Assembly: GCA_031372065.1 (NCBI GenBank)
Contig: JANMKN010000089.1
Span: 1-33,581, forward strand
From: Abditibacteriaceae bacterium
GTDB taxonomy: Bacteria; Armatimonadota; Abditibacteriia; Abditibacteriales; Abditibacteriaceae
Reading direction: 5' to 3'
DNA length: 33,581 bases
Shown here in pieces: positions 11,171 to 29,261 of this stretch (the stretch's first letter is position 1; each line of letters starts with the position of its first letter). The translations under genes and the position numbers were made by a program. Under the pieces are notes generated by a model, which was not told the DNA's origin, did not search any database, and saw only the letters and a list, made by a program, of their open reading frames with translations.

Positions 11171-11925
11171 CTATCTGGTTTTCGCGGTGAGTTTTTTGTT
11201 CGGTTGCAATTTAAACTCGCGGCGAATGGCGATCTCGGTGCCGGGCGGCCACAGGCCATCGGCGGCGTTTTGAATGGTGCGCCGGTCGGCATCGAGCGCC
11301 GGAACGCTCAAGTCGTTCTCGTCGCCATAAAGTAGCTTCACGAGGGCATCATGCGCCTGCGACAGCGCGGTGTTCGCCGCCGTTTGGGCCGCGTCGGCAT
11401 CTTTCCAACTTTGAAAAGCGTTCTGCACGGCGGCGATTTGCACGGTGCCCACGCTGGGCAGCGGCGCGTCGTCCGAAGCCGCTTGCAGCAAAGTCGGAAT
11501 CAGTTGCAACAACTCGGCGCTACTCATGCTGAACACGTTTTTGCCGATGCCATACAGCGATAAACGCCCCGGCGCGGTGCGTTCCAATTTTTGCGCGGCC
11601 CCGCTCTGGATGGCGCCCACCGCTTTGGCGAGCGCTTTTTGAACGTCGCTTCGTCGGCAGTGGCGGTTTTCTGGACGACCATCCTGTTGGTCATCGCCGT
11701 GGCTTTTTGGCGCGCCAAAGTCGCTCGATTGCCCATGTCCGTGAAAAAAGCGGCGGTCAGGGCGCGCTCATTGATGAAGCGCGCTGGTCGGCCCGCCACC
11801 TGCGAGGCGGCTAACACCTCTTCGACGATTTGCAGCGCCTTGAGGTCTTTGACTGCTATCAATTGACGGCTTTTGGCCGTCTGCGCCGGCGTCGCGGCGG
11901 CGGTCGGTGTGTTGCTGTCTGCCAT
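11171..11925 (-). pseudogene. Alpha-helical hypothetical protein (~250 aa) split by a -1 frameshift at TTC-AAA-AAG (pseudogene, sequencing indel or recoded gene)
   Basis: ORF 11524-11925 (RBS GAGGAGAAGGGG) and ORF 11171-11620 join seamlessly as ...DEATFKK|ALAKAVGAIQSG... if one A is added to the A5 run at 11636-11640. Confidence 0.75.
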
Positions 11926-11958
11926 AAAAATACCCCTTCTCCTCTAAAATTGGCCTCC

Positions 11959-12084
11959 GACACCTTACAGAACCTTATTTTCGCGCTGCAAAGCCTCGTT
12001 GGAACGCTACGAAACCTTGTTGAAGCCCTACGAAGCCTTGTTGGAGCCTTACGAAGTGTTGTTTGAGCCTTGCGCACTGCTCTT
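11959..12084. repeat. Degenerate tandem array, 6 x 21 bp
   Basis: gacaccttacagaaccttatt / ttcgcgctgcaaagcctcgtt / ggaacgctacgaaaccttgtt / gaagccctacgaagccttgtt / ggagccttacgaagtgttgtt / tgagccttgcgcactgctctt. Confidence 0.85.
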
Positions 12085-12235
12085 ACGCGATAGTAATCAG
12101 GTCGCGCGCCTTATCGGATGCAATTTTTATGATAACCACTGCTCTAAAAATTGGCAATGGTGGTGTTTTACGGGCGATACAAGACGGCAGCAGACGAAGA
12201 AATGACACATTCCTCGCGCCTCAAAATCCTAATGC

Positions 12236-12265
12236 GATTGCCCTGCCTGTGATTGCCCTGCCTGT
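12236..12265. repeat. Exact 15-bp tandem duplication
   Basis: GATTGCCCTGCCTGT x2. Confidence 0.8.
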
Positions 12266-12392
12266 GCCTGCGAGCGCGCGTATTCGGATAAACGCACTTT
12301 CATAACAGAAACTAATTCTTTGGCTTGCGCGCGATGCTTGTCGGCGACAGCAAGGCGCACTTGGCCTTGTTTATGGCCAAGCCTCGGTTAAT

Positions 12393-12857
12393 TTAATGCT
12401 GATTGCGGCGGCAAATTTCGAGGTTGAGATAAGTGGCGAAACTGACCCACAGCAAATACGGAATCAGCAACTTGGCCGCGCGCGGCGCTTTGCTGTTGAA
12501 TTCGCGCATGGTGAATAGAATCATGACCCACAGCGCCATGATATTGGCCAGCGCCGCGCAAGGTGCTTTGGCGCCGAAGAAAACCAAAGTCCATGTGCCG
12601 TTTAGCAAAAGTTGACCGGCATAAAGCGCGTGTCCGGCGCGTTTTTCGTCCGTGCTTTGCGAGGTCGTGTAAAGGTAATGCGCCACGCCCATCATCAAAT
12701 AAAGCGTTGTCCACACCGGCGCGAAAACCCAAGACGGCGGATTGCCCGGTGGCTTTTCTAAACCGCGATACCATTCGTCCGGCTTTGATACAATGCCCGA
12801 CAGCGAAGGCAAAAACGCCAGTGCGATGCAGCCCGCAAGAATTTTCCAGTTTTTCAT
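12393..12857 (-). CDS. tspO: TspO/MBR tryptophan-rich sensory protein
   Basis: WYRGLEKPPGNPPSWVFAPVWTTLYLMMG, QLLLNGTWTLVFFG, LLIPYLLWVSFATYLN; start trimmed to MKNWK. Confidence 0.93.
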   Translation of the reverse strand: MKNWKILAGCIALAFLPSLSGIVSKPDEWYRGLEKPPGNPPSWVFAPVWTTLYLMMGVAHYLYTTSQSTDEKRAGHALYAGQLLLNGTWTLVFFGAKAPCAALANIMALWVMILFTMREFNSKAPRAAKLLIPYLLWVSFATYLNLEICRRNQH

Positions 12858-12863
12858 GGTTGA

Positions 12864-12950
12864 AACACAAAGGGCACAAAGTTCGCACAAAAAACACAAA
12901 GTTTTTGCTTTTCTTAGTGTTCTTTGTGCGAACTTTGTGCCCTTTGTGTT
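12864..12950. repeat. Intergenic palindrome built from CACAAAG units
   Basis: 28-bp perfect arms 12864-12891 / 12923-12950. Confidence 0.9.
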
Positions 12951-12960
12951 GAAGCAGAAA

Positions 12961-13914
12961 TTAAGCGTAGATTTGTTCTTCCCAATCCTCGACAAGTGGT
13001 TCGGGCGATTGCATGGCGAAGGCGACGGCTTCGTCCACTTCGGCGGTGACTTCTTCGTCCAAGGCGGCGAATTCCTGGTCGGAAACGCCAATGGCAAGGC
13101 GCAGTTTTTCGATACAATCGCGGCTGCGCCACTCTTCTTCTTCTTCGCGCGTGCGATATTCGCGCTTATCGCTTTTGCTGTGGCCGTAGTAGCGATAAGT
13201 GTGCATTTCCAAAAGTGTCGGGCCTTCGCCCTTTTGTGCGCGTTCAACAGCTTTTTGCGTGGCTTCGCGCACCGCGAAAAAGTCGGTGCCGTCAACCGTT
13301 TCGCCGGGGAAGCCATAACCGGCGGCGCGGGCTGCAACCGTGGGCGTGGCGCAGGTTTCATCGAAGGGCGTGGACATGGCGTAAAGGTTATTTTCGCAAA
13401 CGTAGAGAATCGGCAAGCGCCAGATGGCGGCCATGTTCAGGCTTTCATGAAACGTGCCCTGATTGGCGCCGCCTTCGCCGAAAAACGACACCACACAGTT
13501 CGCTTTCTTGCGCATTTGCAGCGACAGCGCGGCGCCGGTGGCAATCGGCAAACCGCCCGCTGTGATGCCGTTGGAGCCAAGAAACCCGACGCTATAATCG
13601 GCGACGTGCTGACTGCCGCCGCGCCCTTTCGATGGCCCTGTGGCTTTGCCGAAAAGCTCGGCCATTAATTCTTTGGCGCCGCCGCCTTTGGCTAAAAAGT
13701 GACCGTGCCCGCGATGCGTGGAAGTGATTAAATCGTCGTTGGTCAGCACTGCGCAAATGCCGACAGCGACGGCTTCTTGCCCCGCGTAAAGATGCGAAGT
13801 GCCTTTAATAACGCCGGAGGCAAAAAGATCATCAAGGCGCTCTTCAAAGCGGCGAATGAGCAGCATCATGCGCAGAGGCGGCATTAAGTTTTCGTTTGGA
13901 GTCATTCGATTCAT
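12961..13914 (-). CDS. TPP-dependent dehydrogenase E1 alpha subunit (pyruvate/acetoin type)
   Basis: HLYAGQEA, STHRGHGH, GRGGSQH, FFGEGGANQGTFHESLN, CENNLYA, YRYYGHS. Confidence 0.92.
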   Translation of the reverse strand: MNRMTPNENLMPPLRMMLLIRRFEERLDDLFASGVIKGTSHLYAGQEAVAVGICAVLTNDDLITSTHRGHGHFLAKGGGAKELMAELFGKATGPSKGRGGSQHVADYSVGFLGSNGITAGGLPIATGAALSLQMRKKANCVVSFFGEGGANQGTFHESLNMAAIWRLPILYVCENNLYAMSTPFDETCATPTVAARAAGYGFPGETVDGTDFFAVREATQKAVERAQKGEGPTLLEMHTYRYYGHSKSDKREYRTREEEEEWRSRDCIEKLRLAIGVSDQEFAALDEEVTAEVDEAVAFAMQSPEPLVEDWEEQIYA

Positions 13915-13934
13915 CAAATTCTTTCAAGAAATTG

Positions 13935-14702
13935 TTAGCTTACAGTCAAGGCGATGTTCGATACCAAATGGCAGTTGTCGCATTTGAAATCAAATTTGTG
14001 CCACGGTTCCGCCAATAACCACTCGCCACCACAGCCGGGACAGCGAAGTTTTCGTTCGGAGGCCATACTCCGGCCATAATACCGATACAAGTAATAATAT
14101 ACGGTTTGTTTTGTGGATTCCGAAATCTTACAGCAAATTTCCAGCCCAGCGCGTGTCAGTTTACTATCCAAACGTGACATCTCTTTCATGGCAGAACGTG
14201 CTAAAACCGTGCAGTGCATTTGCAGGGTGTCACAGCATTGATAATCCGCTTCCCAATGTCGCAAATCCCAGTATTCATTGTGGTAAGTCGGCGAGACTCG
14301 GTAAAGTGGCACAGGGCAAAAACACCGGGCGCAACGCAATGGTGGCTCTACCGTGAGATAACGGGTGTAGAGTATAAAATCCATGAATTGCGTGCATTCA
14401 CAAGGTCCAATACTTTCCACATCGGCGCCTATCACAGTAAAAACAGGTCGTTGTCCACCAGTCACTATAAATTGTTCTATGTCTCTTTCAACCCATTGAT
14501 TGTTATGTTTGGTTTCCAATGCATCTTCATCGGGGATAAGAACAAAAGCGGAAAATCCATTGGGTGTTGTGAGCAGTGGATGGTCGCGGCTACAAAGCTG
14601 TCCGTTGCTCAAAAGCGCACCAAGAATATTGCTGGCTGCCTTCTGCGCTTCCTCATCCCACTCGGACGGATTAAAGGGGAAATTTATTTGGGCGAAAAAC
14701 AT
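13935..14702 (-). CDS. Zn-ribbon-containing protein, DUF2310-like
   Basis: NGQ, PLRCARCFCPVPLY, YQCCDTLQM, YYYLYR, CPGCGGEWLL, FDFKCDNCHLVSN; AT-richer than flanks. Confidence 0.85.
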   Translation of the reverse strand: MFFAQINFPFNPSEWDEEAQKAASNILGALLSNGQLCSRDHPLLTTPNGFSAFVLIPDEDALETKHNNQWVERDIEQFIVTGGQRPVFTVIGADVESIGPCECTQFMDFILYTRYLTVEPPLRCARCFCPVPLYRVSPTYHNEYWDLRHWEADYQCCDTLQMHCTVLARSAMKEMSRLDSKLTRAGLEICCKISESTKQTVYYYLYRYYGRSMASERKLRCPGCGGEWLLAEPWHKFDFKCDNCHLVSNIALTVS

Positions 14703-14752
14703 AACCGTCTCGAAAACCTTTTCACAGGTTAAAAAGTCCCAAAAAGATAACC

Positions 14753-14853
14753 TGTCATTCTTAACGGCGTCGGGTGTCCTTTGGGCAGGACGCCCAGAAG
14801 AATCCCCAGAGTGAGAGGGGATTCTTCGTCTCGTTCCTCACCTCAGAATGACA
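14753..14853. repeat. TGTCATTC...GAATGACA palindromic element with inner GAAGAATC/GATTCTTC stem
   Basis: Terminal IR TGTCATTCT/AGAATGACA; inner GAAGAATCCCC/GGGGATTCTTC and GGGTGTCCT/AGGACGCCC hairpins. Confidence 0.75.
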
Positions 14854-15036
14854 AAAGTCTCGTTTGTCGCCTCAATGTAAGACTTTTCAAACTGTTTCGT
14901 TAGAATAACCGCGTGTGCCCCAAGTTGCGAGCAATCTGCGTGTGCGTCCTTGGATTGTGTGCCGCTTTGAGTTGGTGTTTACTCAAGGCGCAAGCAAAGA
15001 ATTTTCAATTGCGATATGAGAATGGGAGAGCAGAAA

Positions 15037-15762
15037 ATGCGTTTTACAAGCCGATTCACTTTAACAGGTTTACTTGCTACATTGTCCGCCGCGATTTTCA
15101 TGGCGGGTTGTGGTGGCGGTGGCAGCAGCGGCCCGGTTCCTGACCCGAATCCTTTCGCCGGCAGTTACAAGGGCGTTTATTTTGTGACGGCGGGAAAAAA
15201 TGCGGGCGATGCACGATTTTTTAGTTTGAAGGTTCTGGCAAGTGGCGCCATTTCCAGCGAAGCCAGTTCTCTTAATGCCGCCGCCGGAACTGTGAAAGAT
15301 GACGGGAAAATCGCTTTTACGCGGCGCGAAGGCGATTCCACTACCACTTCAGCCCTCGGTCAACTGTTGTTGCCCGGAATCGGGACAATGATCGCTAAAA
15401 ACACGGGTGGCGATGAGTTTTTAGCTGCGCTTTCGCGCATTAACAGCAAAAAAACCAGCTTCGACGGCAATTATTACGGCACAACCCGCGTTCGCACCGG
15501 CACCGGCGTGGGCACTGTGGAAGCTATCGCAGTTGGCGTCAAATCCTCCGGCGCCACGACGATTCTGCTGACCAACGCCAATGGCACCAGTCGCCAGTTG
15601 ACAGGCACCGCCAACCTTACAACCGGTGCCCTAACTGCCACCGGGCCAGCAGGCGCCGATACAATTACCATCACGGTGCAACTCGCCAAAACCGGTCAAG
15701 CAGGCGGCGCATTCGACACTCCCACCAGCCACGGCACAGTAGCGCTGAATAAATCGAATTGA
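15037..15762 (+). CDS. Predicted lipoprotein with two beta-rich repeats
   Basis: RBS GGGAGAG; lipobox MAGC then GGGGSS linker; FAGSYKG / FDGNYYG internal repeat. Confidence 0.8.
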   Translation: MRFTSRFTLTGLLATLSAAIFMAGCGGGGSSGPVPDPNPFAGSYKGVYFVTAGKNAGDARFFSLKVLASGAISSEASSLNAAAGTVKDDGKIAFTRREGDSTTTSALGQLLLPGIGTMIAKNTGGDEFLAALSRINSKKTSFDGNYYGTTRVRTGTGVGTVEAIAVGVKSSGATTILLTNANGTSRQLTGTANLTTGALTATGPAGADTITITVQLAKTGQAGGAFDTPTSHGTVALNKSN

Positions 15763-15822
15763 CAACCTCAGTCGCTTCATTGCCTTGCAAAAAATAACAA
15801 GCAGCGCTGGAAGAGAAACATT

Positions 15823-17010
15823 ATGAAACAAGCGAAACTGCTGTTAGTTTTGGGCGCAGCGAATTTCGCGTTTGCCGCGCAAGCGCAAAGCGAAATTCCT
15901 GCGCTGGTTGAAAAAAACCGCGTGGAAACTCAAACGCTCAAGGTAATCCAAATTCGCAACGTCACGCCGTCCGTCATTGCACATTGGCTTGATGCGAAGC
16001 AATTTTCTCCATCTTCCCTTGAACAGCGTTCGTTGGTGTCGTGGACGGGAAGCGGCTATAGCAAAGAGGACGCGCCTCAATTAAAGTCGCCGGTGCCCGC
16101 TGCCTTGCCCGATGGCGTGCGCATCACCAAAGTTGCAGACGATCAAAACACGCTGGTAATCGCGGGCAGTGAAACCGCAGTTCAGCAAGCCGAAGCGTTA
16201 ATCCGGCAGTTAGATTTGCCGTTTAAGCAAGTCGAAATTGAATGCCAATTGGTTCGTGTGGACGAGGCCCTTTTGAAAGCGGCACGCTTTCCCTTCGCGC
16301 CGATTGGCAAAACATTGGCGGGCGGCATTTTGCAACAGGCCAAACCTGAGCGGAACGTGCCGCTAACTTTGAACAACTGGACAAATAACGCCAAAACTCA
16401 AATTTTGATGGCGCCTCGCGTAGTAGCCATCATGGACTTAGCGGGCAGCATTCGCACTGAAACTATAACTTCAGGCTCTTTTGTGATAGAAAGCGGTTCT
16501 ATTGCAAAAGATGGTTTACCTTCGGTGCAGCAATTTGATCACATCAACACGCCCAGTGAGAGAATGCCACGCTTTATTTCCTCCTATGGCATGACAATAG
16601 TTCCGCAAATTATAGAACAGCGCTCTGTTCAGGCCCGCGTGCAATTAGGACGCAATTTACTTTTGGGCTTTTATAAGCCGTTGCCAGTTTCTGAATCCGA
16701 AAAGGCAGATTTAGAAATGCGGTCAAAAAACGGAAAACTTTCCGCTGAGGAACAGGAAAAACTGACATCTCTGGTATTAGGAATCGAAAAATACCGCCAC
16801 TTTTTGCGCGCCACTGATGGATTTGATGAGGTTATCACTTTGCAAGACGGCGAAACCACAGTTTTGACCGGCTTTACCGAGGATTTGATGTGGGGCAAAC
16901 CGACTTCCACAGAAGAAGCGCTCAAGCGACAAGGAACAACCTTGGTCGCGTTTGTCACATTTAGAATCATTCATCGCCTTGACGAAATGGCGAGCGTGCC
17001 CGGCACTTAA
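15823..17010 (+). CDS. Secretin-like protein (N-domain plus degenerate secretin domain)
   Basis: Signal peptide; ADDQNTLVIAGSETAVQQAEALIRQLDLPFKQVEIECQLV; MAPRV; LQDGETTVLTG; LVAFVTFRII. Confidence 0.75.
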   Translation: MKQAKLLLVLGAANFAFAAQAQSEIPALVEKNRVETQTLKVIQIRNVTPSVIAHWLDAKQFSPSSLEQRSLVSWTGSGYSKEDAPQLKSPVPAALPDGVRITKVADDQNTLVIAGSETAVQQAEALIRQLDLPFKQVEIECQLVRVDEALLKAARFPFAPIGKTLAGGILQQAKPERNVPLTLNNWTNNAKTQILMAPRVVAIMDLAGSIRTETITSGSFVIESGSIAKDGLPSVQQFDHINTPSERMPRFISSYGMTIVPQIIEQRSVQARVQLGRNLLLGFYKPLPVSESEKADLEMRSKNGKLSAEEQEKLTSLVLGIEKYRHFLRATDGFDEVITLQDGETTVLTGFTEDLMWGKPTSTEEALKRQGTTLVAFVTFRIIHRLDEMASVPGT

Positions 17011-17117
17011 AAAGAAGTTCGCGCCTGATTTTGTAGCTACCAACTTGTTAAGGGCTATATCGCCAGAGAACGCCCTAATACGCCCTAACACGCCCGATGT
17101 TTTAGCTTCTTTCGCGC

Positions 17118-19121
17118 CTATTTTGCGCCGTTTTGTGCTTCGCCACCTGTTGCTTTCGTTGGCGTTGGGCGTCCCAGATTTGGTTTCGGCTCCAATTTCT
17201 CCCACGCATTGAGCGCATTTATGTCCTTTTGCGGGAAGACAAACGAGGGAATCGAAATGTCTTCAGGAGAAGTGATGCGCTTCAAATCGGAACCATCTAA
17301 CTTGACGGTGTAAATGCAAACCGAACCAGAATCTTGCGCGGAACCCGACCACCGCAGCGCCGAAAACGTGATGGTTTGACCCTCCGGACTTAAGGTTGCT
17401 ACCTTCATAATCAACGGGCGACCATTGGGTAAATCGGGATCGTGCAATTCAGGAAAAGTTAGCGTCTTTCGTGTTTTTTCATCAACACCAATCATTTCAA
17501 AAGGCACTTTTGGCTGTTTTTCCTCCGCCAAAGGCGAGGCGACGGGTGGTTTCTTATAAGCCACCAAAACCTGCTTGCTTTCCGGCATCCAACTCAAGCG
17601 TTCTGGTTCACCCACCAATTCCACAATTTTATCGGGCACGTTTTTGGAGGAAGGATCCGAGGATACTCGAAATAACGACCAATTGGGTTGAGGCACTTTC
17701 TCCGTCCATTTATCTTTATGCGCAAAGACGATCCATTTCCCATCGGGGCTGAATACAGGGAGAATATCGGGGCCGGGTAAATGCGCCGCACACCATTGAC
17801 GTTCCATTGAGGCTGGGCCAAGATATTTGGATATTTTGGCGACAAAAATATCGTCATCCTCGCTGCCTACCCCATCGCTTGGCGAATGCGTGCCTGACAT
17901 AGCCAGCAAACTTTCGGTAGGGTGCCAACTCGGCATAGTGCGCATGGCTCGCATACGATCATTGCATATGCCCATCACGCCTTTTTGCAAATCCAGCACA
18001 AATATCTCACCCCCGTAAGCAAAAGCAATCCTGTTCCCATCGGCATACAAAGAAGGAAATTGCATCAAACCTTGGAAGGTCATCGCAGCGCGTAAATCGC
18101 CCTCGCGCCAGAGACACAACACCGTCAAATATGGTATCTGTTTTTTCTCTTTTGCTTCGCGGCGCACCTGCTCGTTCGCAGCAGCGCTACCTAAATCTAC
18201 CCACCGAAATGTCATCACCGCGAGCGCCTTGTGGTCAAGATTCCATGAAGGCCAGTAGTCTTGAGTTGGCAGACCATATGGTGTGGGAATTGGTGGCCTT
18301 AATTGAGTGGTCTTGAGTGGTTGAACTTGGTTCACAGTAGAAGACATTTCCTTGCCTAATTCATCAATGAAAACGTCGGCGATGGATTCAGCGATTACCT
18401 TGCCTTCTTCTGGGGAATCATGAAGGATTACAGTGCCTCGTGCCTGAATGTGCCAATGCAATTGCTGCGGGGAACTTGGAATAACCATGATCTCAATCTT
18501 TTCAACTGTCCATCCCGGCAGCAAGTTCACCATGGGCTTAACGGTTTCAATGGCTTGTTCACGGCTCATTTTTGGCTTCAGGCTTTTCAGATTAACTGTA
18601 TGTTCGACCCACTGGTAATCAACAACCTCACCTGTCGAAGCACTCAAAGACAAGAATACAGCCGATGGATAAATCACATCATCAATCTGTTTGACCCAAT
18701 GGAAATTATAAATCTTGCCTAAACCTAAGTTACTACGATCATCAAAGGTTACTGGACGCAGCGTCAAATAGGTGGTGGTTGGTTTAGCGCGATTTTCCAG
18801 GAAGTCCTGTGCTACCGCCGTAGCTTGTTCTAAAGTCAACTCAACCTTTTGTGGAACAGTGGTGCCTTTGAAACAAGTCAAACGGCAAACTAATCCAGAG
18901 GTCGAATCTACATCTATGTCGATACCCTCATCTGAATTGGTAAAATGAAAGCACTTCTTCTCTTTACCCTCCAAATCACCAACTCTACGCCAACCTGACA
19001 GGCGCAAAGCAACCTGCTTTCCAATGAAAGTGACTGCCTTTTCCTTCGCCGTAGCCTCCGAAATTTCAGCGTGAGCTGTCAGAGGCAACCAAATAATCAG
19101 ACACAAAAGTAAAAAGCGCAT
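17118..19121 (-). CDS. Secreted protein: PepSY/YcdB-like N-terminal repeats plus TolB-like (PD40) beta-propeller
   Basis: Signal peptide; ISEATAKEKA, LTLEQATAVAQDFL, MSREQAIE; PSW, PVFSPDGKWIVF, LSPEGQTITF, LDGSDLKRIT. Confidence 0.75.
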   Translation of the reverse strand: MRFLLLCLIIWLPLTAHAEISEATAKEKAVTFIGKQVALRLSGWRRVGDLEGKEKKCFHFTNSDEGIDIDVDSTSGLVCRLTCFKGTTVPQKVELTLEQATAVAQDFLENRAKPTTTYLTLRPVTFDDRSNLGLGKIYNFHWVKQIDDVIYPSAVFLSLSASTGEVVDYQWVEHTVNLKSLKPKMSREQAIETVKPMVNLLPGWTVEKIEIMVIPSSPQQLHWHIQARGTVILHDSPEEGKVIAESIADVFIDELGKEMSSTVNQVQPLKTTQLRPPIPTPYGLPTQDYWPSWNLDHKALAVMTFRWVDLGSAAANEQVRREAKEKKQIPYLTVLCLWREGDLRAAMTFQGLMQFPSLYADGNRIAFAYGGEIFVLDLQKGVMGICNDRMRAMRTMPSWHPTESLLAMSGTHSPSDGVGSEDDDIFVAKISKYLGPASMERQWCAAHLPGPDILPVFSPDGKWIVFAHKDKWTEKVPQPNWSLFRVSSDPSSKNVPDKIVELVGEPERLSWMPESKQVLVAYKKPPVASPLAEEKQPKVPFEMIGVDEKTRKTLTFPELHDPDLPNGRPLIMKVATLSPEGQTITFSALRWSGSAQDSGSVCIYTVKLDGSDLKRITSPEDISIPSFVFPQKDINALNAWEKLEPKPNLGRPTPTKATGGEAQNGAK

Positions 19122-19185
19122 GGTTTAATTCTTCCTTTCTATCGAGTGAGCTCAAAAAAGTCCTTTATTTCGCAGGAAATGAAGT

Positions 19186-19950: not shown

Positions 19951-20071
19951 AAATCGTAGGAAACTGTTCGCAAAAGTTTGGAAAATCGCGTCCCAGTTTC
20001 GCCGATTTATGATATTTTTGCTGCCCATATTCCCGCGTGCCAATCGCCTTTAAGCCGCGCCAGCAATCTTC

Positions 20072-20168
20072 TGTAGTTGTAAATCAGGCTCTTGTTATGG
20101 AGGCCGAGCAGCCATAAAATCGTGGCGTGCAAATCGTGAATGTGCAGGCGGTTTTCGACGGCGTGCAG
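20072..20168 (-). pseudogene. Duplicated fragment of the DUF1501 gene 3' region
   Basis: Gapless 97-bp match to 21105-21201 with 11 mismatches by manual count; LHAVENRLHIHDLHATILWLLGL. Confidence 0.85.
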
Positions 20169-20230
20169 AGCACAATGCACGTAAGGTCGCTCTGACGCAA
20201 GGCAGCGAAGTTTCCGGCGGTTAAAAACCA

Positions 20231-20269
20231 CAAAAACGCCCTGCGAAACCATTTCGCAGGGCGTTTTTG
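20231..20269. terminator. Bidirectional intrinsic terminator
   Basis: CAAAAACGCCCTGCGAAA-CCA-TTTCGCAGGGCGTTTTTG. Confidence 0.8.
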
Positions 20270-20401
20270 CATTTTCCACAGGGCAATGCCGACATTTTAG
20301 AGTGAGTCTTATATTTTGAGTTCAAAAACCAAATTTAGAAGGGTGGGAGGCTTTAACCTGACACACTGCGCTTCGGCCAGAATTGTTGCAGGTGGGGCCA
20401 A

Positions 20402-20959: not shown

Positions 20960-21042
20960 AATCTTCCCTTAGGACAAGGTTTTGCCCCCTTCACACAACC
21001 GGGCTTATGGCAGTTTGCTTCTTGTGTGTTTAAATTTCAAAT

Positions 21043-22503
21043 TCACACCGCAATCTTCTGATACGGTTCGCCTTCGTTGAGTGTCGGGCGTTCGGGGCGG
21101 CCTTTGTAGTTGAAAATGAGGCCCATGTTGTCGAGGCCGAGCAGCCACAGAATAGTGGCGTGCAGGTCGTGAATGTGCAGGCGGTTTTCGACGGCGTGCA
21201 GGCCCAGTTCGTCGGTTGAGCCGATGGTTTGGCCACCTTTAACGCCGCCACCGGCCATCCACATGGTGAAGCCGGTCGGGTTATGGTCGCGGCCATCGCC
21301 TTTTTCGCTCATCGGCGTGCGGCCAAATTCGCCGCCCCACACAACTAAGGTGTCGTCCAGCATCCCACGCGCTTTTAAATCTTTCAGCAGGCCAGCGACA
21401 GGCAAATCCATGCTTTTGCAGAGCGAGGAGTGATTTTTTTCGATGTCGGCGTGCGAATCCCATTTGCTGCCCGCGCCGTGATAAATTTGCACAAAGCGCA
21501 CGCCGCGTTCGACGAAACGCCTTGACAGCAAACACAAACGGCCCATCGCTTCGGTGTCTTTGTTGTCAAGGCCATAAAGCTTTTTGGTGGCTTCGCTTTC
21601 GTTTTCGATTTCCACGGCGTGCGGCGCTTCGGCTTGCATCCGAAACGCGAGTTCATAGCTTGTCAAGCGCGCCGCAAGTTCGCTTTGGTCGGCAAAACGC
21701 GCTGCGTAATCCTTGTTTAAGCCGTTGATAAATTCCAATTTCGATTGCTGCTGTGACGCCGTGAGCGCATCGGGCGTATTCAAATTAGGAATCGGTTCGC
21801 TGCCGCCTTGAATGCGAATGCCCTGATAAACCGCTGGCATAAATCCGGCGCTCCAGTTGCGCGGGCCGTTGACGACGCTGGTTTGCGTGTCCTGCATCAC
21901 CACAAAGGCCGGTAAGTCGGTATTTTCTGTTCCGAGGCCGTAAGTCGCCCACGAACCCAGCGATGGGCGCCCGCCTAAAATTGAGCCGGTGTTCATCTGA
22001 CACACGCCAGACGAATGGTTGATGCCATCGGCCCAGCATGAGCGAATGACAGCGATGTCGTCCACCATTTTCGCGGTTTCCGGCAGCCAATCCGACACCC
22101 AAAGTCCGCTTTGCCCGTGTTGTTTCCACGCGCGTTTGGAAGCCAGAAGGGGCGATTTCGATTCGCCCATCGCGGTTAAAACTTCGCCGAAACTGGCGGG
22201 CAGGGGCTTGCCCGCTAATTCGTTGAGCAGCGGCTTGGGGTCGAATAAATCAATGTGCGACGGCCCGCCTTCCATGAAGAGGAAGATGACATTTTTCGCC
22301 CGCGCTTTGAGCATCGGCGCTTTGGCTTTGAGCGGCGAATCAATGGATTTGTGAGCGTTAGCTTGGGCAACGGCGTTTTTCGTCAGCAAACTTTGCAATG
22401 CGACGGCGCCAAGGCCAACACCCGAACGAAACAAAAAATCGCGCCGCGATAACGGCGAAGCCGAAAATGCGGTTTCATAACGATGGCAACGTGGGTCTTT
22501 CAT
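21043..22503 (-). CDS. DUF1501 domain protein with Tat signal
   Basis: SRRDFL; IFLFMEGGPSHIDLFDPKP; RRFVERGVRFVQ; WDSH; GEFGRTP; GRDHNP. Confidence 0.93.
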   Translation of the reverse strand: MKDPRCHRYETAFSASPLSRRDFLFRSGVGLGAVALQSLLTKNAVAQANAHKSIDSPLKAKAPMLKARAKNVIFLFMEGGPSHIDLFDPKPLLNELAGKPLPASFGEVLTAMGESKSPLLASKRAWKQHGQSGLWVSDWLPETAKMVDDIAVIRSCWADGINHSSGVCQMNTGSILGGRPSLGSWATYGLGTENTDLPAFVVMQDTQTSVVNGPRNWSAGFMPAVYQGIRIQGGSEPIPNLNTPDALTASQQQSKLEFINGLNKDYAARFADQSELAARLTSYELAFRMQAEAPHAVEIENESEATKKLYGLDNKDTEAMGRLCLLSRRFVERGVRFVQIYHGAGSKWDSHADIEKNHSSLCKSMDLPVAGLLKDLKARGMLDDTLVVWGGEFGRTPMSEKGDGRDHNPTGFTMWMAGGGVKGGQTIGSTDELGLHAVENRLHIHDLHATILWLLGLDNMGLIFNYKGRPERPTLNEGEPYQKIAV

Positions 22504-22517
22504 TTTTTAACTTTCAA

Positions 22518-22613
22518 ATAGAACGCAAATCACGCAAATGAACGTGAATTTTCGGAAATTTCTTTTTAAAAATTTCCGTAAATTTCCGAATATTTGCGTG
22601 ATTTGCGTTCTAT
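22518..22613. repeat. Intergenic palindrome built from ACGCAAAT units
   Basis: 22-bp perfect arms 22518-22539 / 22592-22613 plus inner TTCGGAAATTT/AAATTTCCGAA. Confidence 0.88.
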
Positions 22614-22616
22614 CTC

Positions 22617-25600
22617 TTACTCCACATACAAAAATTCGCTGGCGTTCAACAGCGCGTGGCAGAAATCGGTCAGGGCGGCGCGGCGTGGGTTGGCTTCAGC
22701 GGACACTTGCGGCGTGGCGGCTTGAAGGTCGTAATGGTGGCCGCTGGTGTCAGCTAAGACATCGGGTTTTTGCTCGAAGCGCCAATAACCCAGCGTCGAA
22801 GCCGCCACGCCTTCGCTTTGATATAGCAATTGCGCCACATCTAACGCGCCTTTGGATAAACGCACATCATCCAGCGCGCCGTGAAACGAATTGGGCGCGC
22901 CACTGCGTCCGCCGAGCGTGATGGGAAAGTCATTTTTCAAGCCACCCACCAAATCGTGCGCGACGGTTGACATGAGCAGCGGCTCGTCATCGTTCGACAA
23001 ATCTTTCAAGGTGAACAGCGTTTTTCCGGGCTGTTCTTTTGTGGCGTAAGTCACGCTGGCCGACATGAAATACGGCTTGTTCATCGTCACATTAAGGTCG
23101 GAAAACATAACGACTTCGCCGCTTGTGCCGTCGCGTTTTTTGCCGGACGTTTGCAGCACCAAAACCATCGGCTTGCGGCGCGAACCCTGGCCGGTGATGC
23201 CAAAAGTCCAGCCGGGCATGGTCAAATCGCCGTTCCACTTCGCGGCGATATTGCGCACCGCGCCGGTTTCCGCGACAGTGCGCGGCACAACGTAGGCTTC
23301 AATCGTGAAACCGTCGGCCAGCGAAATGTCTTTGCTGTTTTTGGCGCGAAAAACCTGCTGTTTGCCCGCTGGTTCGATGAGCGCGCCCTGACCATCACGA
23401 TACGGCACTTTTTCGGGCAGAAAACTGGCCTGATCGGAACCCGCAACTTTGCTGTCCACGGTGCCCGCCTGCTGCGTTAAAAACGCGCTGGCTGCTTTTG
23501 CTTCGTTGTCCGAAGGCGCGCGGCCAAAAACAAGGCGATAAGCCGTTTCGATTTGCTTTGTTTCGTCGTTTGGCGCGAGTTTTTCCAGTCTGCCGGCCAA
23601 AGCGCGGCCCCTTTGCAGCATAAACGGGCTGTTGACCAGCAAAAGCGACTGCACCGGCGTGGTTGTCGTGGGCCGCGATGAGGCGCTGGCAAACCACAGC
23701 GGCGCGTCGAAAACATCGGTGAAAGGGTCACGCGAATTGCGCATGATGCGCGTGTAAATGCTGCGCCGCGCTTCTCCGTAATTCACGCCCGTGCCGCCTA
23801 TTTTTTCGTTTAGTTCGCCCGTCACGGCAAAGACGGCGTCGCGGATTTGTTCGGCTTCCAAACGATGCGGGCGCGCACGCCACAGCAGCAAATTTTCGGG
23901 GTCTTTGAGTCGCCCTTTTTCCGCATCGGGATGCTGCGATGATTGGCGATAAGTCGCCGAAGTGACAATCAGGCGATGCAGTTTTTTCAGGCTCCAGCCG
24001 CCTTCCACAAAATGTTTTGCCAGATAATCGAGCAGTTCGGGATGTGTCGGCTGTTGTCCCAGTTTGCCGAAGTCGCTGGCGTTGGCGGCCAAGCCGCGTC
24101 CGAAGTGCTGCTGCCACACGCGATTGACAATCACGCGCACTGTCAGCGGATTATCGGGCCGCGTCAGCCAAAAGGCCAACGCGCTGCGTCGTCCGGTGCT
24201 ACCGGGCAAGCCGTCAATTTTCGCGGGCGCTTCGTCTAAAACAGATAAAATGCCCGGCTCAATCGCTTCTTTGGCTTTTTTCGGAATGAAAGTCGGCGGC
24301 GCTTGCGGGCCGATGTCGGAAACGGCAAAGGCGACGGGCAAAGACGCCGGTTTCTCGCTATCGAAAGCCGCTAATTGCTTGCGCAGCGCGATGAGTTTTT
24401 CTTTGTCCTCGCTTTTGATGCGGTTATCGAGGCGGCCATATTCGTATTCGACTTGCCGCCACACTAAAGCCGAAATTTGGCCTTCAAACGGCGTGCGCTT
24501 GTCTTTTGGCGTGTTGACCATCGCCTGAATTTCATCGGGAAAACGGCCTACCGCTTCTTTCTGCGCTTTTTCGCGATAGTCTTTTTCGATGGCATCAATT
24601 TGGGCGCGAATATCGGCGGTTTTGCCTTCCCAAACGGCCAAGTTGCGCGCGTATTCTGCCTTTTCGGTTTGCGTGGCGGCGATTAAATCCTGACGCGGCA
24701 AAAGCGGCGCGAAAAAGGCTTGCAAACGGTAATAATCTTTTTGCAAAATCGGGTCGAATTTATGGTCGTGACAGCGCGCACATTGCACGCCCATGCCCAG
24801 AAAAACATCGCCGGTTGTATCGGTTAAATCGTTGAGAATCACGTCCCATTGGCCGCGTGCGTCACGGCTGTTGTATTCGTAAATCCAATGGCGCAAATAG
24901 CCGGTTGCCAGTAGTGCGTCGGGGTCGCCGGGAAACATTTCATCGCCAGCCAATTGCTCTTGCACAAAGCGGTCATACGGCTTATCGGCGTTGAAGGCGC
25001 GAATCACATAATCGCGATAGCGCCACGCATCGGGGCGATAATCATCAATGCGATAACCGTCGCTGTCGGCGTAGCGCACTAAATCCAGCCAGCCACGCGC
25101 CATGCGTTCGCCATAGCGCGGACTTGCCAACAAGCGATCAACTAATTTTTCGTAAGCATCCAGCGCGCTGTCGGCAACGAAATTATTTACTTCGTCGGGC
25201 GTGGGTGGCAGGCCGGTTAAATCGAAAGTGACGCGGCGGATGAGCGCGGTTTTCGCGGCTTCGGGCGCGCTTTGCAAGCCTTCTTTTTCAAGACGCGCCA
25301 AGATGAATTTATCAATGGCGTTTTTGCCGTCCGCAACTGGCGGCGGCGCTGTGTTTTTGACTGGTTGAAAGGCCCACCACGCTTTGTCTTCTTCGCTGAT
25401 TTTGCCGCGCCCTCGTTTGGTTATGCCTTCGACGCCGCCTTTTTCCGCGCCGGGCCACGTCGCGCCGCCTTTGATCCAATCGGTCAGCGCGGCAATTTCG
25501 GTATCGCTGAGTTTGCCTTTGGGCGGCATTTGCAGGTTCTCATCGGCGTAATTTACGGCTTTAATCAGCAAACTTTTTTCCGGTTCGCCGGGCACGACTG

Positions 25601-25901
25601 CCGGGCCGGAATCGCCGCCGTGCAGCATCGCCTCGCGCGAATCAAGAACTAACCCGCCTTTACTTTTATTGGCGGCGTGAGAGTGACAGGAAAAGCATTT
25701 TTCGGCCAAAACCGGACGAGCTTTATCAAATAATGGATCAGCAGAAACGGAAACGTTAAACACAAAGAACACAAAGGCAGCACAAAGAAACACCAAGAAG
25801 TTCAAAGGAAATTTTGGAAATGACATCCTGAAATCTTCATCTTCTTTTTTGTGTTTCTTTGTGCTGCCTTTGTGTTCTTTGTGTTTATAATTCGTGTTCA
25901 T
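22617..25901 (-). CDS. PSD1/planctomycete cytochrome c protein (PSCyt1 + DUF1549 + DUF1553) with inserted LamG-like domain
   Basis: CFSCH and CARCHDHKFDPI; WWAFQP; YGERMARGWLDLVRYADS; VIVNRVWQQHFGRG; HALLNASEFLY; ATG 25901 overlaps the upstream TGA (TGATG); alternative start 25826. Confidence 0.92.
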   Translation of the reverse strand: MNTNYKHKEHKGSTKKHKKEDEDFRMSFPKFPLNFLVFLCAAFVFFVFNVSVSADPLFDKARPVLAEKCFSCHSHAANKSKGGLVLDSREAMLHGGDSGPAVVPGEPEKSLLIKAVNYADENLQMPPKGKLSDTEIAALTDWIKGGATWPGAEKGGVEGITKRGRGKISEEDKAWWAFQPVKNTAPPPVADGKNAIDKFILARLEKEGLQSAPEAAKTALIRRVTFDLTGLPPTPDEVNNFVADSALDAYEKLVDRLLASPRYGERMARGWLDLVRYADSDGYRIDDYRPDAWRYRDYVIRAFNADKPYDRFVQEQLAGDEMFPGDPDALLATGYLRHWIYEYNSRDARGQWDVILNDLTDTTGDVFLGMGVQCARCHDHKFDPILQKDYYRLQAFFAPLLPRQDLIAATQTEKAEYARNLAVWEGKTADIRAQIDAIEKDYREKAQKEAVGRFPDEIQAMVNTPKDKRTPFEGQISALVWRQVEYEYGRLDNRIKSEDKEKLIALRKQLAAFDSEKPASLPVAFAVSDIGPQAPPTFIPKKAKEAIEPGILSVLDEAPAKIDGLPGSTGRRSALAFWLTRPDNPLTVRVIVNRVWQQHFGRGLAANASDFGKLGQQPTHPELLDYLAKHFVEGGWSLKKLHRLIVTSATYRQSSQHPDAEKGRLKDPENLLLWRARPHRLEAEQIRDAVFAVTGELNEKIGGTGVNYGEARRSIYTRIMRNSRDPFTDVFDAPLWFASASSRPTTTTPVQSLLLVNSPFMLQRGRALAGRLEKLAPNDETKQIETAYRLVFGRAPSDNEAKAASAFLTQQAGTVDSKVAGSDQASFLPEKVPYRDGQGALIEPAGKQQVFRAKNSKDISLADGFTIEAYVVPRTVAETGAVRNIAAKWNGDLTMPGWTFGITGQGSRRKPMVLVLQTSGKKRDGTSGEVVMFSDLNVTMNKPYFMSASVTYATKEQPGKTLFTLKDLSNDDEPLLMSTVAHDLVGGLKNDFPITLGGRSGAPNSFHGALDDVRLSKGALDVAQLLYQSEGVAASTLGYWRFEQKPDVLADTSGHHYDLQAATPQVSAEANPRRAALTDFCHALLNASEFLYVE
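25757..25887. repeat. CACAAAG-unit palindrome inside the 5' coding region of the PSD1 gene
   Basis: 37-bp perfect arms 25757-25793 / 25851-25887. Confidence 0.92.
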
Positions 25902-26371
25902 CAAAGCGTCACCACCACGTTGCCATTTTCGTCCACTTCGCACGGATAAGTTGCTACGCGGCCATGAGCGTCGTAAAGGCCTTTGCCGGTCACGATGTCG
26001 AATTCCCAGCCGTGCCAGGGGCAGCGCAAAACGCGGCCTTCTAATGCGGGATCAAATTCGCCGACTGCGCCGGGGCGATGTGTGGTTTGAATGTGTCCCA
26101 TGCACAGAGGCGCTCCGGCGTGCGGGCAGACATTTTTGATGGCGTGAAACTTCCCGCCGATGTTGAAAACGCCAAAGGAAATCTCGCCGTTGTCGAAGAT
26201 TTTCTTTTCACCCGGCGCGATTTTGCTGGCCGCGCCGATGTTGATTTTTCTGCCTCGTTTCGCCACCGGTGGCGCAGCGGCATCAGCGACTTTGAAAGCG
26301 TAATCCAAAGGCGATTCGGGGCCGAAACCGTTGTTCAAACCAGCAATGTTTTCGCGTTTTTTTTCACTCAT
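25901..26371 (-). CDS. Rieske (2Fe-2S) ferredoxin-type protein
   Basis: CPHAGAPL...CPWHGWEFD; ATGA overlap with the amidohydrolase gene. Confidence 0.92.
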   Translation of the reverse strand: MSEKKRENIAGLNNGFGPESPLDYAFKVADAAAPPVAKRGRKINIGAASKIAPGEKKIFDNGEISFGVFNIGGKFHAIKNVCPHAGAPLCMGHIQTTHRPGAVGEFDPALEGRVLRCPWHGWEFDIVTGKGLYDAHGRVATYPCEVDENGNVVVTL

Positions 26372-27480
26372 TTGGTTGCCTCGACAAGAGCGGATGCGAC
26401 AGGCTGCGTCCCTACAAATTCTTCCAAACTCGGCAAGTCATACAATTCCGCCGCGTTGCTGTAAAAAATGCGTTCTTTCAAGGCTTTCTCCATGCGCGGC
26501 GGAAAAACGCGGCGCGGGTCGTCGAAATCCCAGTGCGGATAATCGCTGGCAAAGCAAACGGTGCGATGCGCTTCGATCATGTCGAAGATTTGCAGCAAAT
26601 GCTCCGGTTTGCGCGGCTCTTCCATCGGCTGCGTGGTGACGCGAACGTGTTCGAGAATGTATTCGCTGGGCAAGTGCTTGAGCCACGGCGTTGTCGAACG
26701 CAGTGCCTTGAAATTCTTGTCCATGCGCCACATTAAATGTGGCAACCAGCCGAAACCAGCTTCGACGAAAACCGCTTTGAGCGTCGGAAACTTCTCGAAG
26801 ACGCCTTCGCATACCAGCGAAGCCAACTGCGCCATATAAGTAAGCGGAATGGTCGAATGCCACTCGAAATAACTGGATGGCGCGCCGATGGGCGTGCTGG
26901 GTGTGCGGGCGCCTTCGTTGCCGGGATGCAGGGCGAAGGCAATGCCCATTTCGGTGCAGGCTTCGTAAATCGGAAAATAGTGCCGATGCCCGTAAAGCAT
27001 GGTGCTTTCGCCCGTCACGATAACCTGCACCATTTGCGGATGCTGCGCCGCGCGGCGAATTTCCTTAGCCGCTTGCACCGGGTCATTCATGTTGACGCAA
27101 ATGGAGCCAAGAAAACGCGCATCGTAGTTCAGCCAATGCTCGATTTGCCACTCGTTCCATGCGCGCGCCACAGCGCAGCCGACATCAATGTTCGCGGCGA
27201 GGCTGATATTTAGGCCCGGCGGCTGCAAAACGCCATAAACGATGCCATAGCGTTCCAAAAGGTTGTCAATCACGTCTTGCGGGCCATCAATTGTGGCGTC
27301 GCGGCGCTGCACTCCAAACGGATTAGCATAGCCTTGTCCCGGCTGCGAAGCCTGTCCTTGCGCGACGGCCTGCCGAAAGTCTTCGGCGATGTGCGGCATC
27401 AGCGGCATTTCACTTGTTGCGTGCGGATGAATGTCGCAATCAATGAGCGGAAGATCGAGATGTTTGCTATTTTCGGACAT
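26368..27480 (-). CDS. Amidohydrolase_2 family metal-dependent hydrolase
   Basis: IDCDIH, WNEW, LHP, EGVFEKFPTLK, EAGFGW, FASDYPHWDFD. Confidence 0.92.
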   Translation of the reverse strand: MSENSKHLDLPLIDCDIHPHATSEMPLMPHIAEDFRQAVAQGQASQPGQGYANPFGVQRRDATIDGPQDVIDNLLERYGIVYGVLQPPGLNISLAANIDVGCAVARAWNEWQIEHWLNYDARFLGSICVNMNDPVQAAKEIRRAAQHPQMVQVIVTGESTMLYGHRHYFPIYEACTEMGIAFALHPGNEGARTPSTPIGAPSSYFEWHSTIPLTYMAQLASLVCEGVFEKFPTLKAVFVEAGFGWLPHLMWRMDKNFKALRSTTPWLKHLPSEYILEHVRVTTQPMEEPRKPEHLLQIFDMIEAHRTVCFASDYPHWDFDDPRRVFPPRMEKALKERIFYSNAAELYDLPSLEEFVGTQPVASALVEATK

Positions 27481-27549
27481 ATACTAATTATTTCATATTT
27501 GGGCGACTGGGAATTTGCGTTTTTGTGCGATTGGTATAGGATTTATTTC

Positions 27550-28329
27550 ATGGCCCACGATTTCTGGGAATACGAACTGTGTTTGCGTTCTTATACATTT
27601 TATGAGCGTCGCCCACAATTTGTAAACACGCGCAGCACGTTTGGCGAATGGGTGCTGATAGCCGTTGAAAGTGGCGCCTTCGATTATGACACGGGCAGCG
27701 AACGCGGTCAGGCGACGCCCGGCGATTTAGTTTTCGCTTCGCCGCACGTCCCGCTGTGGCGCAGCGCGACGGCCTCGCCGTTTTCCTATCATGTTTTGCA
27801 ATGGTCGTTTGAAAACGCGCCAGAAGCAGCAGCATGGCTACCCGGCAAGTGGCCGGTGCATAATACGACGCGCTTATTTGAAGATTATGCCTTGCTGCGC
27901 CCGCTTTATGGACGCAGCGATGAATATGCGCGGCGGCGCGTGGAAAACCTGCTCGAAGACATTTTGCTGCTGGCGTGGGAAACGCGCCACGCGCCGCCCG
28001 AAGTTAATGATCCGACGATGCGCAAAGCCGCCACGCTTTTGCGCGAACGCGCCGGAGAAGCCTTTTCGATGGCCGAAGTTTCGGACGCTATCGGTTTAAA
28101 GCCGGTGCAATTCACGCGGCGCTTTCGCAAAGCGCACGGCACGACGCCGATTGAATATCTCACCAAAGTGCGTTTGGAAAACGCGCAGCGCTTGCTCATC
28201 GAAACTGACGCCTCGTTAGATGAAATCGCCACACGCTGCGGCTGGTCAAGCGGCTATTATTTATCGGATGTTTTCAAAAAAGTCTTCGCCCTCGCGCCGG
28301 GCCAATTTCGCCGCTTGCATCGGGTGTGA
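27550..28329 (+). CDS. AraC-family transcriptional regulator
   Basis: FTRRFRKAHGTTPIEYL..RLENAQRLL..IATRCGW..YLSDVFKK..PGQFR; start trimmed to MAHDF; divergent from the operon. Confidence 0.93.
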   Translation: MAHDFWEYELCLRSYTFYERRPQFVNTRSTFGEWVLIAVESGAFDYDTGSERGQATPGDLVFASPHVPLWRSATASPFSYHVLQWSFENAPEAAAWLPGKWPVHNTTRLFEDYALLRPLYGRSDEYARRRVENLLEDILLLAWETRHAPPEVNDPTMRKAATLLRERAGEAFSMAEVSDAIGLKPVQFTRRFRKAHGTTPIEYLTKVRLENAQRLLIETDASLDEIATRCGWSSGYYLSDVFKKVFALAPGQFRRLHRV

Positions 28330-28351
28330 TTTTTCTTGGCAAATGCAAAAC

Positions 28352-28583
28352 AGGGCGCAAAAAAGTCCGTTTCGCGCGCGAAAAATTCCAAAACAGAGCA
28401 CTAAATAAACTTTTTCGCGCCCTAAAATTCCAAAACAGAGCACTAAATGAACTTTTTCGCGCCCTAAAATTCCAAAACAGAGCACTAAATGAACTTTTTT
28501 GCGCCCTAAAATTCCGAAACAGAGCACCAAATGAAACTTTTAGGGCGCAAAAAAAACAAAATAGAGCGCAAAAAAGTATTTTT
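28352..28583. repeat. Tandem array, 11 x 21 bp, with a central near-perfect 42-bp dimer
   Basis: Alternating agagcactaaatgaacttttt / cgcgccctaaaattccaaaac; degenerate flanking units; one 22-bp unit. Confidence 0.93.
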
Positions 28584-28664
28584 CGATAGCGAACTTTTGC
28601 TTTTTTTTGTGGTCAAAAACGATAACGGCAGCAATGTCGGAATATATTTTGAGGGAGAACTCAC

Positions 28665-29261
28665 ATGGACGACTGGTTATCATTATCCCCGCGCGATTTA
28701 GCCGCTTTAATAGACAAAATTACGGCAAAAGCGGGCAACAATCCGGCGAGCATCGGACTGACAGGTGACCTTGTGACACAACTTCAAGCGGTGTCAATCG
28801 CTCTGGTGACGCGCCAAAACGCCGTTGATACAACGGGTTTTGCTTATCGGGGCGCCCAGAAAGAGTTGGGCACGCAAGTCAAAGCCAGCAAAGTTTTGCT
28901 GCGCCGCGCGCGCAAGAAAATCGAGGCCAGCGATGCGTCCGAGCAAGATCGCATTGCGGCGGGCGTTCCCAGTCCCAATGACACACCCATGCCCTTGATG
29001 GCGCCGACTGATTTAGTGGTGACGCCAAGCGGCACCGTGAACAAACTTAAGTGGAAGAAGAACGGCAATTCGTCGGGCGTGCAATACGTCATCGAAGTCA
29101 AAATCGCCGACGGTAATTGGACGCTTCTCGATGTCATCACCGCCACCAAATACGAACACACCGGACGCACAGCGGGCCAACGCGTTATGTATCGCATCAA
29201 AGCCCGCAAAGGCCGCGTCACTTCCGATTATTCCAACGAAGCCGGTGTTTACCTGTCGTAA
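28665..29261 (+). CDS. Hypothetical protein: N-terminal helical domain plus C-terminal fibronectin type III-like domain
   Basis: RBS GAGGGAG; APTDL..LKW..YVIE..W..Y..YRIKA..SDYSNEA is an Fn3 pattern; no signal peptide. Confidence 0.85.
   Translation: MDDWLSLSPRDLAALIDKITAKAGNNPASIGLTGDLVTQLQAVSIALVTRQNAVDTTGFAYRGAQKELGTQVKASKVLLRRARKKIEASDASEQDRIAAGVPSPNDTPMPLMAPTDLVVTPSGTVNKLKWKKNGNSSGVQYVIEVKIADGNWTLLDVITATKYEHTGRTAGQRVMYRIKARKGRVTSDYSNEAGVYLS

Follow-up and report, generated by a model that had tools for sequence, protein, structure and literature searches.

Tandem repeats with a constant length of 20-21 nt and a variable sequence, which are non-coding, species-specific and very uneven in abundance, have been described in bacteria by Subirana and Messeguer (PMC8161180); the accessible part of that paper suggests a repeat-size-dependent protein that polymerises on DNA, and it names no associated gene. 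In the REPIN-RAYT systems, according to Bertels and Rainey (10.1101/2021.07.10.451892), a cognate gene lies beside a repeat that also has many gene-less copies in extragenic space. The present work concerns a stretch of 33,581 nucleotides, referred to in its entirety as the window, which is contig JANMKN010000089.1 of the Abditibacteriaceae bacterium assembly GCA_031372065.1 (contig C190 of genome G000, 6.14 Mb, in our designation). Two loci in this window, A and B, each contain a tandem array followed by a gene for an Ala-rich helical protein. Both of them belong to a genome-wide family of cassettes, in which a non-coding array with a period of 21 or 42 bp is followed by a helical-module gene. 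No published account of such an array-gene pairing was found in the open-access literature.

Array-gene cassettes in the genome and in the window

An earlier note on this DNA, made from the sequence alone, had described an "orphan" gene in two copies and had proposed a dispersed family of arrays and genes. Dozens of such genes are present in the genome, so that the first description does not stand, and the proposed family exists on a far larger scale than was envisaged. In a scan of G000 with Tandem Repeats Finder (TRF), rows with a score of at least 60 peaked at periods 21 (390 rows), 42 (189) and 63 (107), and upon merging they gave 381 arrays, 342 of which lie outside called genes (36 of the 342 touch contig ends). 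The genes adjoining the arrays comprise about 17 families and about 90 genes in total, these counts being approximate as the genes were called by our own script. They encode proteins of 120-330 aa; some of the proteins carry an Fn3 domain, a single one belongs to the PQLLE family, and the others have no Pfam or NCBIfam match. Of the 66 helical genes, 59 have an array in the 400 nt that precede them, as against 182 of the 3772 other genes, whereas a downstream array was present for 2 of 73 helical genes (loci L175, L269 and L289 had insufficient DNA and were omitted from the upstream counts). Because the families were first found through their arrays, this in-genome upstream count is not independent, and the counts in other genomes, given below, therefore matter. 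In family c8 the array is located downstream instead (5 of 6 cases); the c8 proteins are 150-160 aa long and the 21-bp array lies 5-42 nt past the stop codon (e.g. C239:5613-6089, L013).

The helical genes differ from other genes in their surroundings as well. Strong Shine-Dalgarno sites precede 70 of 86 of them versus 752 of 3705 others; strong hairpins follow 59 of 76 versus 95 of 200, and multi-copy repeats 24 of 76 versus 36 of 200. Purifying selection acts on these genes, the ratio of nonsynonymous to synonymous substitution being 0.16-0.37 in all nine paralog pairs that were compared. Another element, about 260 nt long and scattered over the genome with 79-85% identity (contigs C212, C122, C311, C227, C181, C96, C16 and C76), precedes one c2 gene that has no array and follows several other helical genes.

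The layout of array, gene and hairpin that the note had reported is real at both window loci (Table 1), including the strong ribosome-binding sites and the hairpins after the genes, with corrections: the period of array B is 42 bp, and gene A is not one open reading frame (ORF). TRF reported array A with a period of 21, 3.8 copies and 81% matches, and array B (28370-28541) with a period of 42 and 93% matches; the self-identity of array B is 0.42 at lag 21 and 0.88 at lag 42. Both genes are monocistronic, as had been stated, and the genes next to such cassettes vary across the genome. The hairpin after gene B is absent from the terminator scan because its loop exceeds the limit of the scan.

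Table 1. Features of loci A and B in the window.
Feature	Position	Strand	Remarks
Sigma70-like promoter upstream of array A	12129..12157	-	10/12 consensus matches, 17-nt spacer
Array A	11959..12084	-	Degenerate 21-bp units; TRF core 11991-12069
Shine-Dalgarno site, gene A	11934..11946	-	From sequence
Gene A, 5' part	11636..11925	-	Bulk of helical module 1; frame interrupted at five-base run 11636-11640
Gene A, 3' part	11171..11650	-	Other frame, module 2; family c10
Multi-copy repeat downstream of gene A	10907..10999	-	13-bp terminator-like hairpin (10952-10924)
Array B	28352..28583	+	42-bp units, each two diverged 21-mers; inverted units at both ends
Shine-Dalgarno site, gene B	28651..28659	+	From sequence
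Gene B	28665..29261	+	Intact, 198 aa; one helical module and Fn3
Hairpin after gene B	29282..29327 (about)	+	A and T flanks; read from sequence

Gene A is a pseudogene, so that locus A is a decaying copy and locus B an intact one. The gene is divided between two frames, an ORF of 133 aa (11925-11524) and a second frame that ends at 11171, while its intact c10 paralogs at C129, C106 and C188 encode 238-242 aa. Its pseudogene status follows from two observations: the sequence is identical and ungapped in contigs of runs X1 and X3 (X1 is possibly the source of the assembly), and 3 of the 8 family-A members in G000 are broken, each at different places (C351 near residue 172; C233 at several). An assembly error is unlikely in view of the matching contigs, and a programmed frameshift was rejected, as other members break elsewhere and the homologs in other genomes are mostly intact. 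Both this frameshift and the approximately 270 gene-less arrays described below had been overlooked in the note. The multi-copy repeat that follows gene A is also found after the PQLLE-family gene in C318.

The two window arrays are not homologous to each other, since neither was listed when the other was compared with the genome by blastn. The 14/21 match between their units that had been pointed out is real, but of 1819 pairs of unrelated arrays 4.7% reach it as well. In four contig sets of one study, no sequence was seen that joins the two flanks of either cassette directly. The neighbours of both cassettes are rearranged in relatives, with other DNA following the AraC gene in G002 and G003.

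The helical-module proteins

The AlphaFold2 model of the gene B protein (28 sequences; predicted local distance difference test, pLDDT, 93) has helices at residues 9-23, 27-30, 34-88 and 93-98, which are followed by a beta sandwich. This C-terminal half is a seven-stranded Fn3 domain, matching titin Fn3 in Foldseek (E 7e-7) and having a VIA structure match with Z 13.7 and a root-mean-square deviation (rmsd) of 1.6 over 86 aligned residues. In the model of P0007, an intact paralog of gene A, two successive helical units are seen (pLDDT 91), the first consisting of helices 29-45, 48-55, 61-116 and 121-126 and the second of helices 138-154, 162-217 and 223-231. The domain composition proposed earlier, two helical units in the first protein and one plus Fn3 in the second, agrees with these models.

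The proteins had also been aligned by eye without gaps. One of the peptides quoted for this purpose ends in FKKA where the DNA reads FKKR, and BLASTP detects no similarity between A and B; the register itself receives weak support from profile comparisons. With shallow in-genome profiles the A-B comparison gave 0.6%, and with deeper profiles from full alignments it gave 17.6% in that register. When the modules were cut out and compared by hhalign, with 12 block shuffles per comparison, the probability for B versus unit 1 of A was 59% (score 27.9, block-shuffle maximum 17.0), for B versus unit 2 it was 37% (25.0 versus 21.1), and for the two units of A with each other 36% (26.6 versus 17.9). 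These scores provide weak to moderate indications that A and B share one helical module. Modelled as an antiparallel homodimer, the module of gene B scored 0.73, with the best control at 0.00, and the runs agreed in at least 95% of contacts at a pLDDT of at least 86; the mark applied is one that 20 of 30 solved pairs and 1 of 23 single chains attained. It is thus predicted by modelling that the one-module protein B pairs antiparallel and that the two-module protein A would form an equal rod in a single chain.

Fold searches for the helical part, in which the gene B module was not run on its own, returned generic bundles only (best Z 9.7, rmsd 4.1, 177 aligned); the matches to Avd (Z 7.7) and Xcc0516 (Z 7.5) are at the background for helical bundles. 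No viral fold matched the helical part at E 0.001, and a search of viral contigs gave no member of family A. Neither a ribbon-helix-helix nor a winged-helix domain was seen as a Pfam match or among the listed fold matches; no toxin of the ToxN/TenpN/CptN type was matched in Pfam or NCBIfam, and the models are unlike an enzyme fold. PF01797 was matched neither by the window proteins nor by any of 17 further representatives of the families, and the seven PF01797 genes of the genome are located elsewhere. The window proteins also had no match to the models for PQLLE (NF052641) and DUF6261 (PF19775). The array-linked C318 gene, which is a PQLLE member, has weak similarity to family A (hhalign 66%), and a DUF6261-bearing cluster listed in the Atlas at 0.86 for P0007 serves as a lead only.

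Period and turnover of the arrays

The lag profile of the arrays has peaks at 21 and 42 only, although the arrays form many unrelated sequence families, and no sub-period of 7 or 10.5 bp was found. The period is a trait of the protein family: it is a true 41-42 bp in c2 (8/8), c17 (4/4) and c60 (2/2), and about 21 bp in c5, c10, c11 and c14, a value that most of the remaining families share. Among 172 units, significant dyads are present in 21 (8.6 expected) and A/T tracts in 62. In the paralogs C102 and C41 the array, leader and first codons are 97-98% identical, in contrast to 54-79% for the remaining gene, which indicates that a block containing the array was transferred from one gene to another, and homologous recombination is enough to account for this.

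Gene-less copies of the arrays

No helical gene adjoins 271 of the arrays, and 77 of these orphans match a gene-linked array. Both window arrays have such a copy, that of array A at G000:C115:24769-24884 (87% identical over 71 nt) and that of array B at G000:C374:12699-12934 (89% over 192 nt). The possibility that the latter is an assembly artefact was rejected, as its flanks are present in contigs of X1, X2 and X3 from one study. Orphans are longer or shorter than their donors by whole units. The far-side flank of the donor is retained by 12 of 53 orphans (about 2 expected), whereas the leader (4/50) and the terminator (3/58) are not kept. At one syntenic site an orphan fills 264 nt versus 33 nt in G002 and 74 and 90 nt in relatives, and inverted repeats of other short units are found there in G003 and G001; at a second site the orphan occupies 314 nt, compared with 102 nt in G002.

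Distribution in other genomes

Arrays with a period of 21 or 42 were detected by TRF upstream of the gene in all five Acidobacteriota relatives of B, one of them having only 1.9 copies. In other genomes of the phylum, the 21/42 signal was present upstream at 10 of 25 loci, downstream at 0 of 26, and at other lags at 0 of 25. Family A is present in 11 of the 301 genomes searched. In G001-G003, no full-length helix-Fn3 match was obtained with the alignment used (A8), and no match to the window arrays was found. The density of arrays is 42 per Mb in G000; elsewhere the numbers were 0 in 400 kb (G002), 1 in 396 kb (G003), 2 in 300 kb (G005), 5 in 200 kb, most of them within long ORFs (G004), 0 in 140 kb (G012) and 0 in 160 kb (G011).

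Explanations for the array-gene pairing

The reading that we favour, which in our judgment has a little less than an even chance of being correct, is that the array of a cassette, lying next to the promoter, is coated by the protein of that cassette, which recognises it by spacing, and that the arrays spread in a REPIN-like manner as gene-less copies. The helical-module protein would form a two-fold rod, as modelled; the rod likely binds the array of its own cassette through the spacing and shape of the units; the array-bound protein likely controls its own promoter; and it likely assists in copying the array, though not the gene, to the spaces between other genes. DNA binding, autoregulation and the role in copying are steps that we infer. 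A helix of 55 residues is about 8 nm long, and 21 bp of DNA about 7 nm, by standard geometry. A two-fold rod of about 8 nm, if formed as predicted, would suit dyad-rich units that are 7 nm apart, and it is on this account that the coating model is favoured. Of the four roles that the note had considered for the array, a phased DNA platform fits best. In favour of this reading we count the excess of upstream arrays at helical genes in G000 and at loci in other genomes, the link of the period to the protein family, the sigma70-like promoters that separate array and start codon at 16 of 51 loci, the orphans that match donor arrays and fill slots which are short or hold other repeats in relatives, the array block common to C102 and C41, the purifying selection on the genes, the module similarity of A and B and the homodimer model.

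A number of observations weigh against this reading. Most of the protein families are acidic (pI 4.4-6.6 in c2, c5, c14, c16, c21, c30, c60 and c64), protein B being basic with a pI of 9.7. The helical proteins share no catalytic motif, for which reason cutting and joining would have to be supplied by host recombination or by a transposase acting in trans. The two-module gene A has a 21-bp array and the one-module gene B a 42-bp array, so that rod length is not a simple determinant of the period; a doubling of the period with that of the module fits c2 versus c11 and fails for these two. Paralogs with at least 70% protein identity share array words in 9 of 10 pairs, those below 70% in 0 of 137, and proteins that are 84-91% identical can follow clearly diverged units; with such fast turnover of the array sequence, its recognition could not be strictly sequence-specific. 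The promoter identified at locus A lies upstream of the array and not between array and gene, and at locus B no consensus promoter was seen. No donor is matched by 194 of the 271 orphans, and deletion relics with gene remnants occur among them (C298 and C98, and probably C19, as judged by eye). Only 3 of the 8 metagenome relatives of A with full upstream DNA pass the array search, two of them identical in sequence, and 15 of the 25 loci outside G000 fall below the array threshold. Lastly, the prediction that the gene-bearing genome G046 should be array-rich failed: it has at least four family-A genes and two arrays in 400 kb, both within long ORFs, so gene carriage alone does not spread arrays. 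The burst of arrays is specific to G000, with no orphan burst in the other gene-bearing genomes.

Alternatively, the array may act in cis as an upstream regulatory element to which a factor of the host responds (the alpha subunit of RNA polymerase, a nucleoid protein or an activator) and not the cassette protein, with whole cassettes inserting and the orphans being what remains after gene deletion. The array ends near the -35 box (median distance from array end to promoter 17.5 nt in 14 loci), whole-cassette duplicates extend from the array start to the stop codon, and the acidic proteins, the broken family-A genes and the relics C298 and C98 can be viewed as consistent with a host reader and a series of decay. 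However, a gene remnant of at least 10 bits is found at only 2 of 77 oriented orphans, one being a known pseudogene, the orphans occupy tight slots devoid of leader and terminator, and the link of the period to the protein family is left unexplained. We consider this explanation unlikely, but the best of the alternatives.

The arrays may also be structured RNA, either a leader or a separate transcript, that is bound by the protein as in type III toxin-antitoxin systems or a small ribonucleoprotein. This is less probable again. Transcription of such repeats is discussed in PMC8161180, and 37 of 70 arrays fold better than all 14 period- and dinucleotide-preserving nulls (4.7 expected), array B having a z of -4.4. 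This folding is due to palindromic units or inverted segments, the latter being present in 69 of 251 arrays, and dyad symmetry equally suits a two-fold DNA binder; array A folds no better than shuffles (z -0.09). A leader RNA, one of the roles considered in the note, agrees with the upstream promoter at locus A, which is weak on its own (1 found, 0.8 expected by chance), but not with the many loci where a sigma70-like promoter lies between array and start codon (16 of 51; none of 51 when the opposite strand is scanned); upstream of the arrays there is no promoter enrichment (7 versus 5 of 58). No terminator separates array and gene at either window locus, and the orientation bias of the orphans is only mild (46 same and 26 opposite relative to the 5' neighbour, 37 and 32 relative to the 3' neighbour).

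A length-variable switch, in which slippage changes the number of units and thereby tunes the adjacent promoter, is very improbable. The whole-unit differences between donors and orphans, and a sequence difference in the terminal part of array B in a related strain (run X4), speak for it; the fixed period, the link to protein family and the 270 orphans are left unexplained, and no variation in unit number within one population was seen in the contigs available. Least credible of all is that the arrays encode heptad-repeat peptides pairing with the helical proteins, akin to the basic heptad leader peptide of the note: despite a slight excess of stop-free frames (2.6 versus 2.05, sd 0.05) and the fusion of some arrays to genes by gene callers (P0136), the best-frame synonymous fraction of 0.45 is near the null of 0.425 and far from the 0.77 of coding repeats, the best lag is 20, 22, 41 or 83 in 50 of 260 arrays, and the open frames show no preference for strand or frame, a sense ATG-ORF covering the array in only 12 of 61 cases.

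Other features of the window

An AAA ATPase and HNH nuclease pair (29326-31295, minus strand; Pfam AAA_21 and HNH), of lower GC content, is convergent with gene B; we take it to resemble a defence pair of the Septu/PtuAB type. A 75% identical copy of it is present in G003 in a different context. A duplicate of 97 nt (89%; 20072-20168 versus 21105-21201) places the 3' end of the gene at 21043-22503 about 1 kb downstream. Gene-less inverted repeats with 7- or 10-bp units are located at 4742-4826, 12864-12950, 22518-22613 and 25757-25887, and they resemble the arms of four-helix-bundle and GxxExxY genes (C161, C113).

Comparison with known systems

In centromere or operator arrays and iterons (ParR-parC, SopB-sopC, Rep iterons), as in the cassettes, a helix-phased array lies directly upstream of a promoter and gene, and autoregulation by a coating protein, as proposed here, would be a further likeness. 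The cassettes differ in having no neighbouring ATPase or origin and no detected ribbon-helix-helix or winged-helix domain, and in being chromosomal with hundreds of arrays. In type III toxin-antitoxin systems a promoter, an RNA repeat array, a terminator and a toxin gene form one transcript; at neither window locus is there a terminator between array and gene, and at 16 of the 51 loci counted above the promoter comes after the array. A link to the hagB/hagC repeats was not confirmed.

Two other kinds of repeat-flanked genes occur in G000. For each of the five PF05635 four-helix-bundle genes, inverted repeats built of units of about 7 bp lie on both sides, and the inverted repeats on both sides of each of the three PF13366 GxxExxY genes have units of about 10 bp; these genes sit between two inverted arms, whereas the 21-bp arrays are one-sided. 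Their presence suggests a wider pattern. One four-helix-bundle gene with 7-bp inverted arms (G000:C312:12342-13083) apparently lies inside a DNA methyltransferase-like gene, its flanks being, by eye, consecutive parts of the methyltransferase-like protein, possibly as an excised or bypassed insertion. At L090 (G003:C207, about 40330-40910), between two cell-wall genes, a short ORF has on either side one copy of a directly repeated stretch of about 54 nt, within which a 10-bp inverted-repeat element begins; the arrangement looks like what integration of a circle at the repeat would leave. A bolder proposal, which we hold to be rather doubtful, would be a new class of intragenomic replicator consisting of an array and a non-enzymatic rod protein that measures two turns of DNA, coats the array and escorts it to new sites; the burst in G000 (about 90 genes and 340 arrays) would be its product, and the four-helix-bundle/7-mer and GxxExxY/10-mer pairs further cases.

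In being fixed in period, variable in sequence, non-coding, species-specific and unevenly abundant, the G000 arrays are like the repeats described in PMC8161180; they are unlike them in that some are tied to helical-module genes and others include copies of such gene-linked arrays. The puzzle raised there thus gains a candidate partner protein adjoining the arrays, and what was a guess becomes a direct binding experiment. If it is true that the protein reads spacing and not sequence, this would be an unusual mode of DNA recognition, and if it helps the arrays to spread, the system would be a replicator without a nuclease of its own. With REPIN-RAYT, as presented by Bertels and Rainey, the cassettes have in common the gene-less copies in extragenic space and the occurrence of different repeat types in one slot among relatives. 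They differ in that the cassette has no HUH/Y1 transposase; in place of a single-copy, vertically kept gene there are about 90 diverged genes, which are absent or rare in the same-genus genomes searched; and in place of paired short palindromes the gene has a long array of direct repeats to one side.

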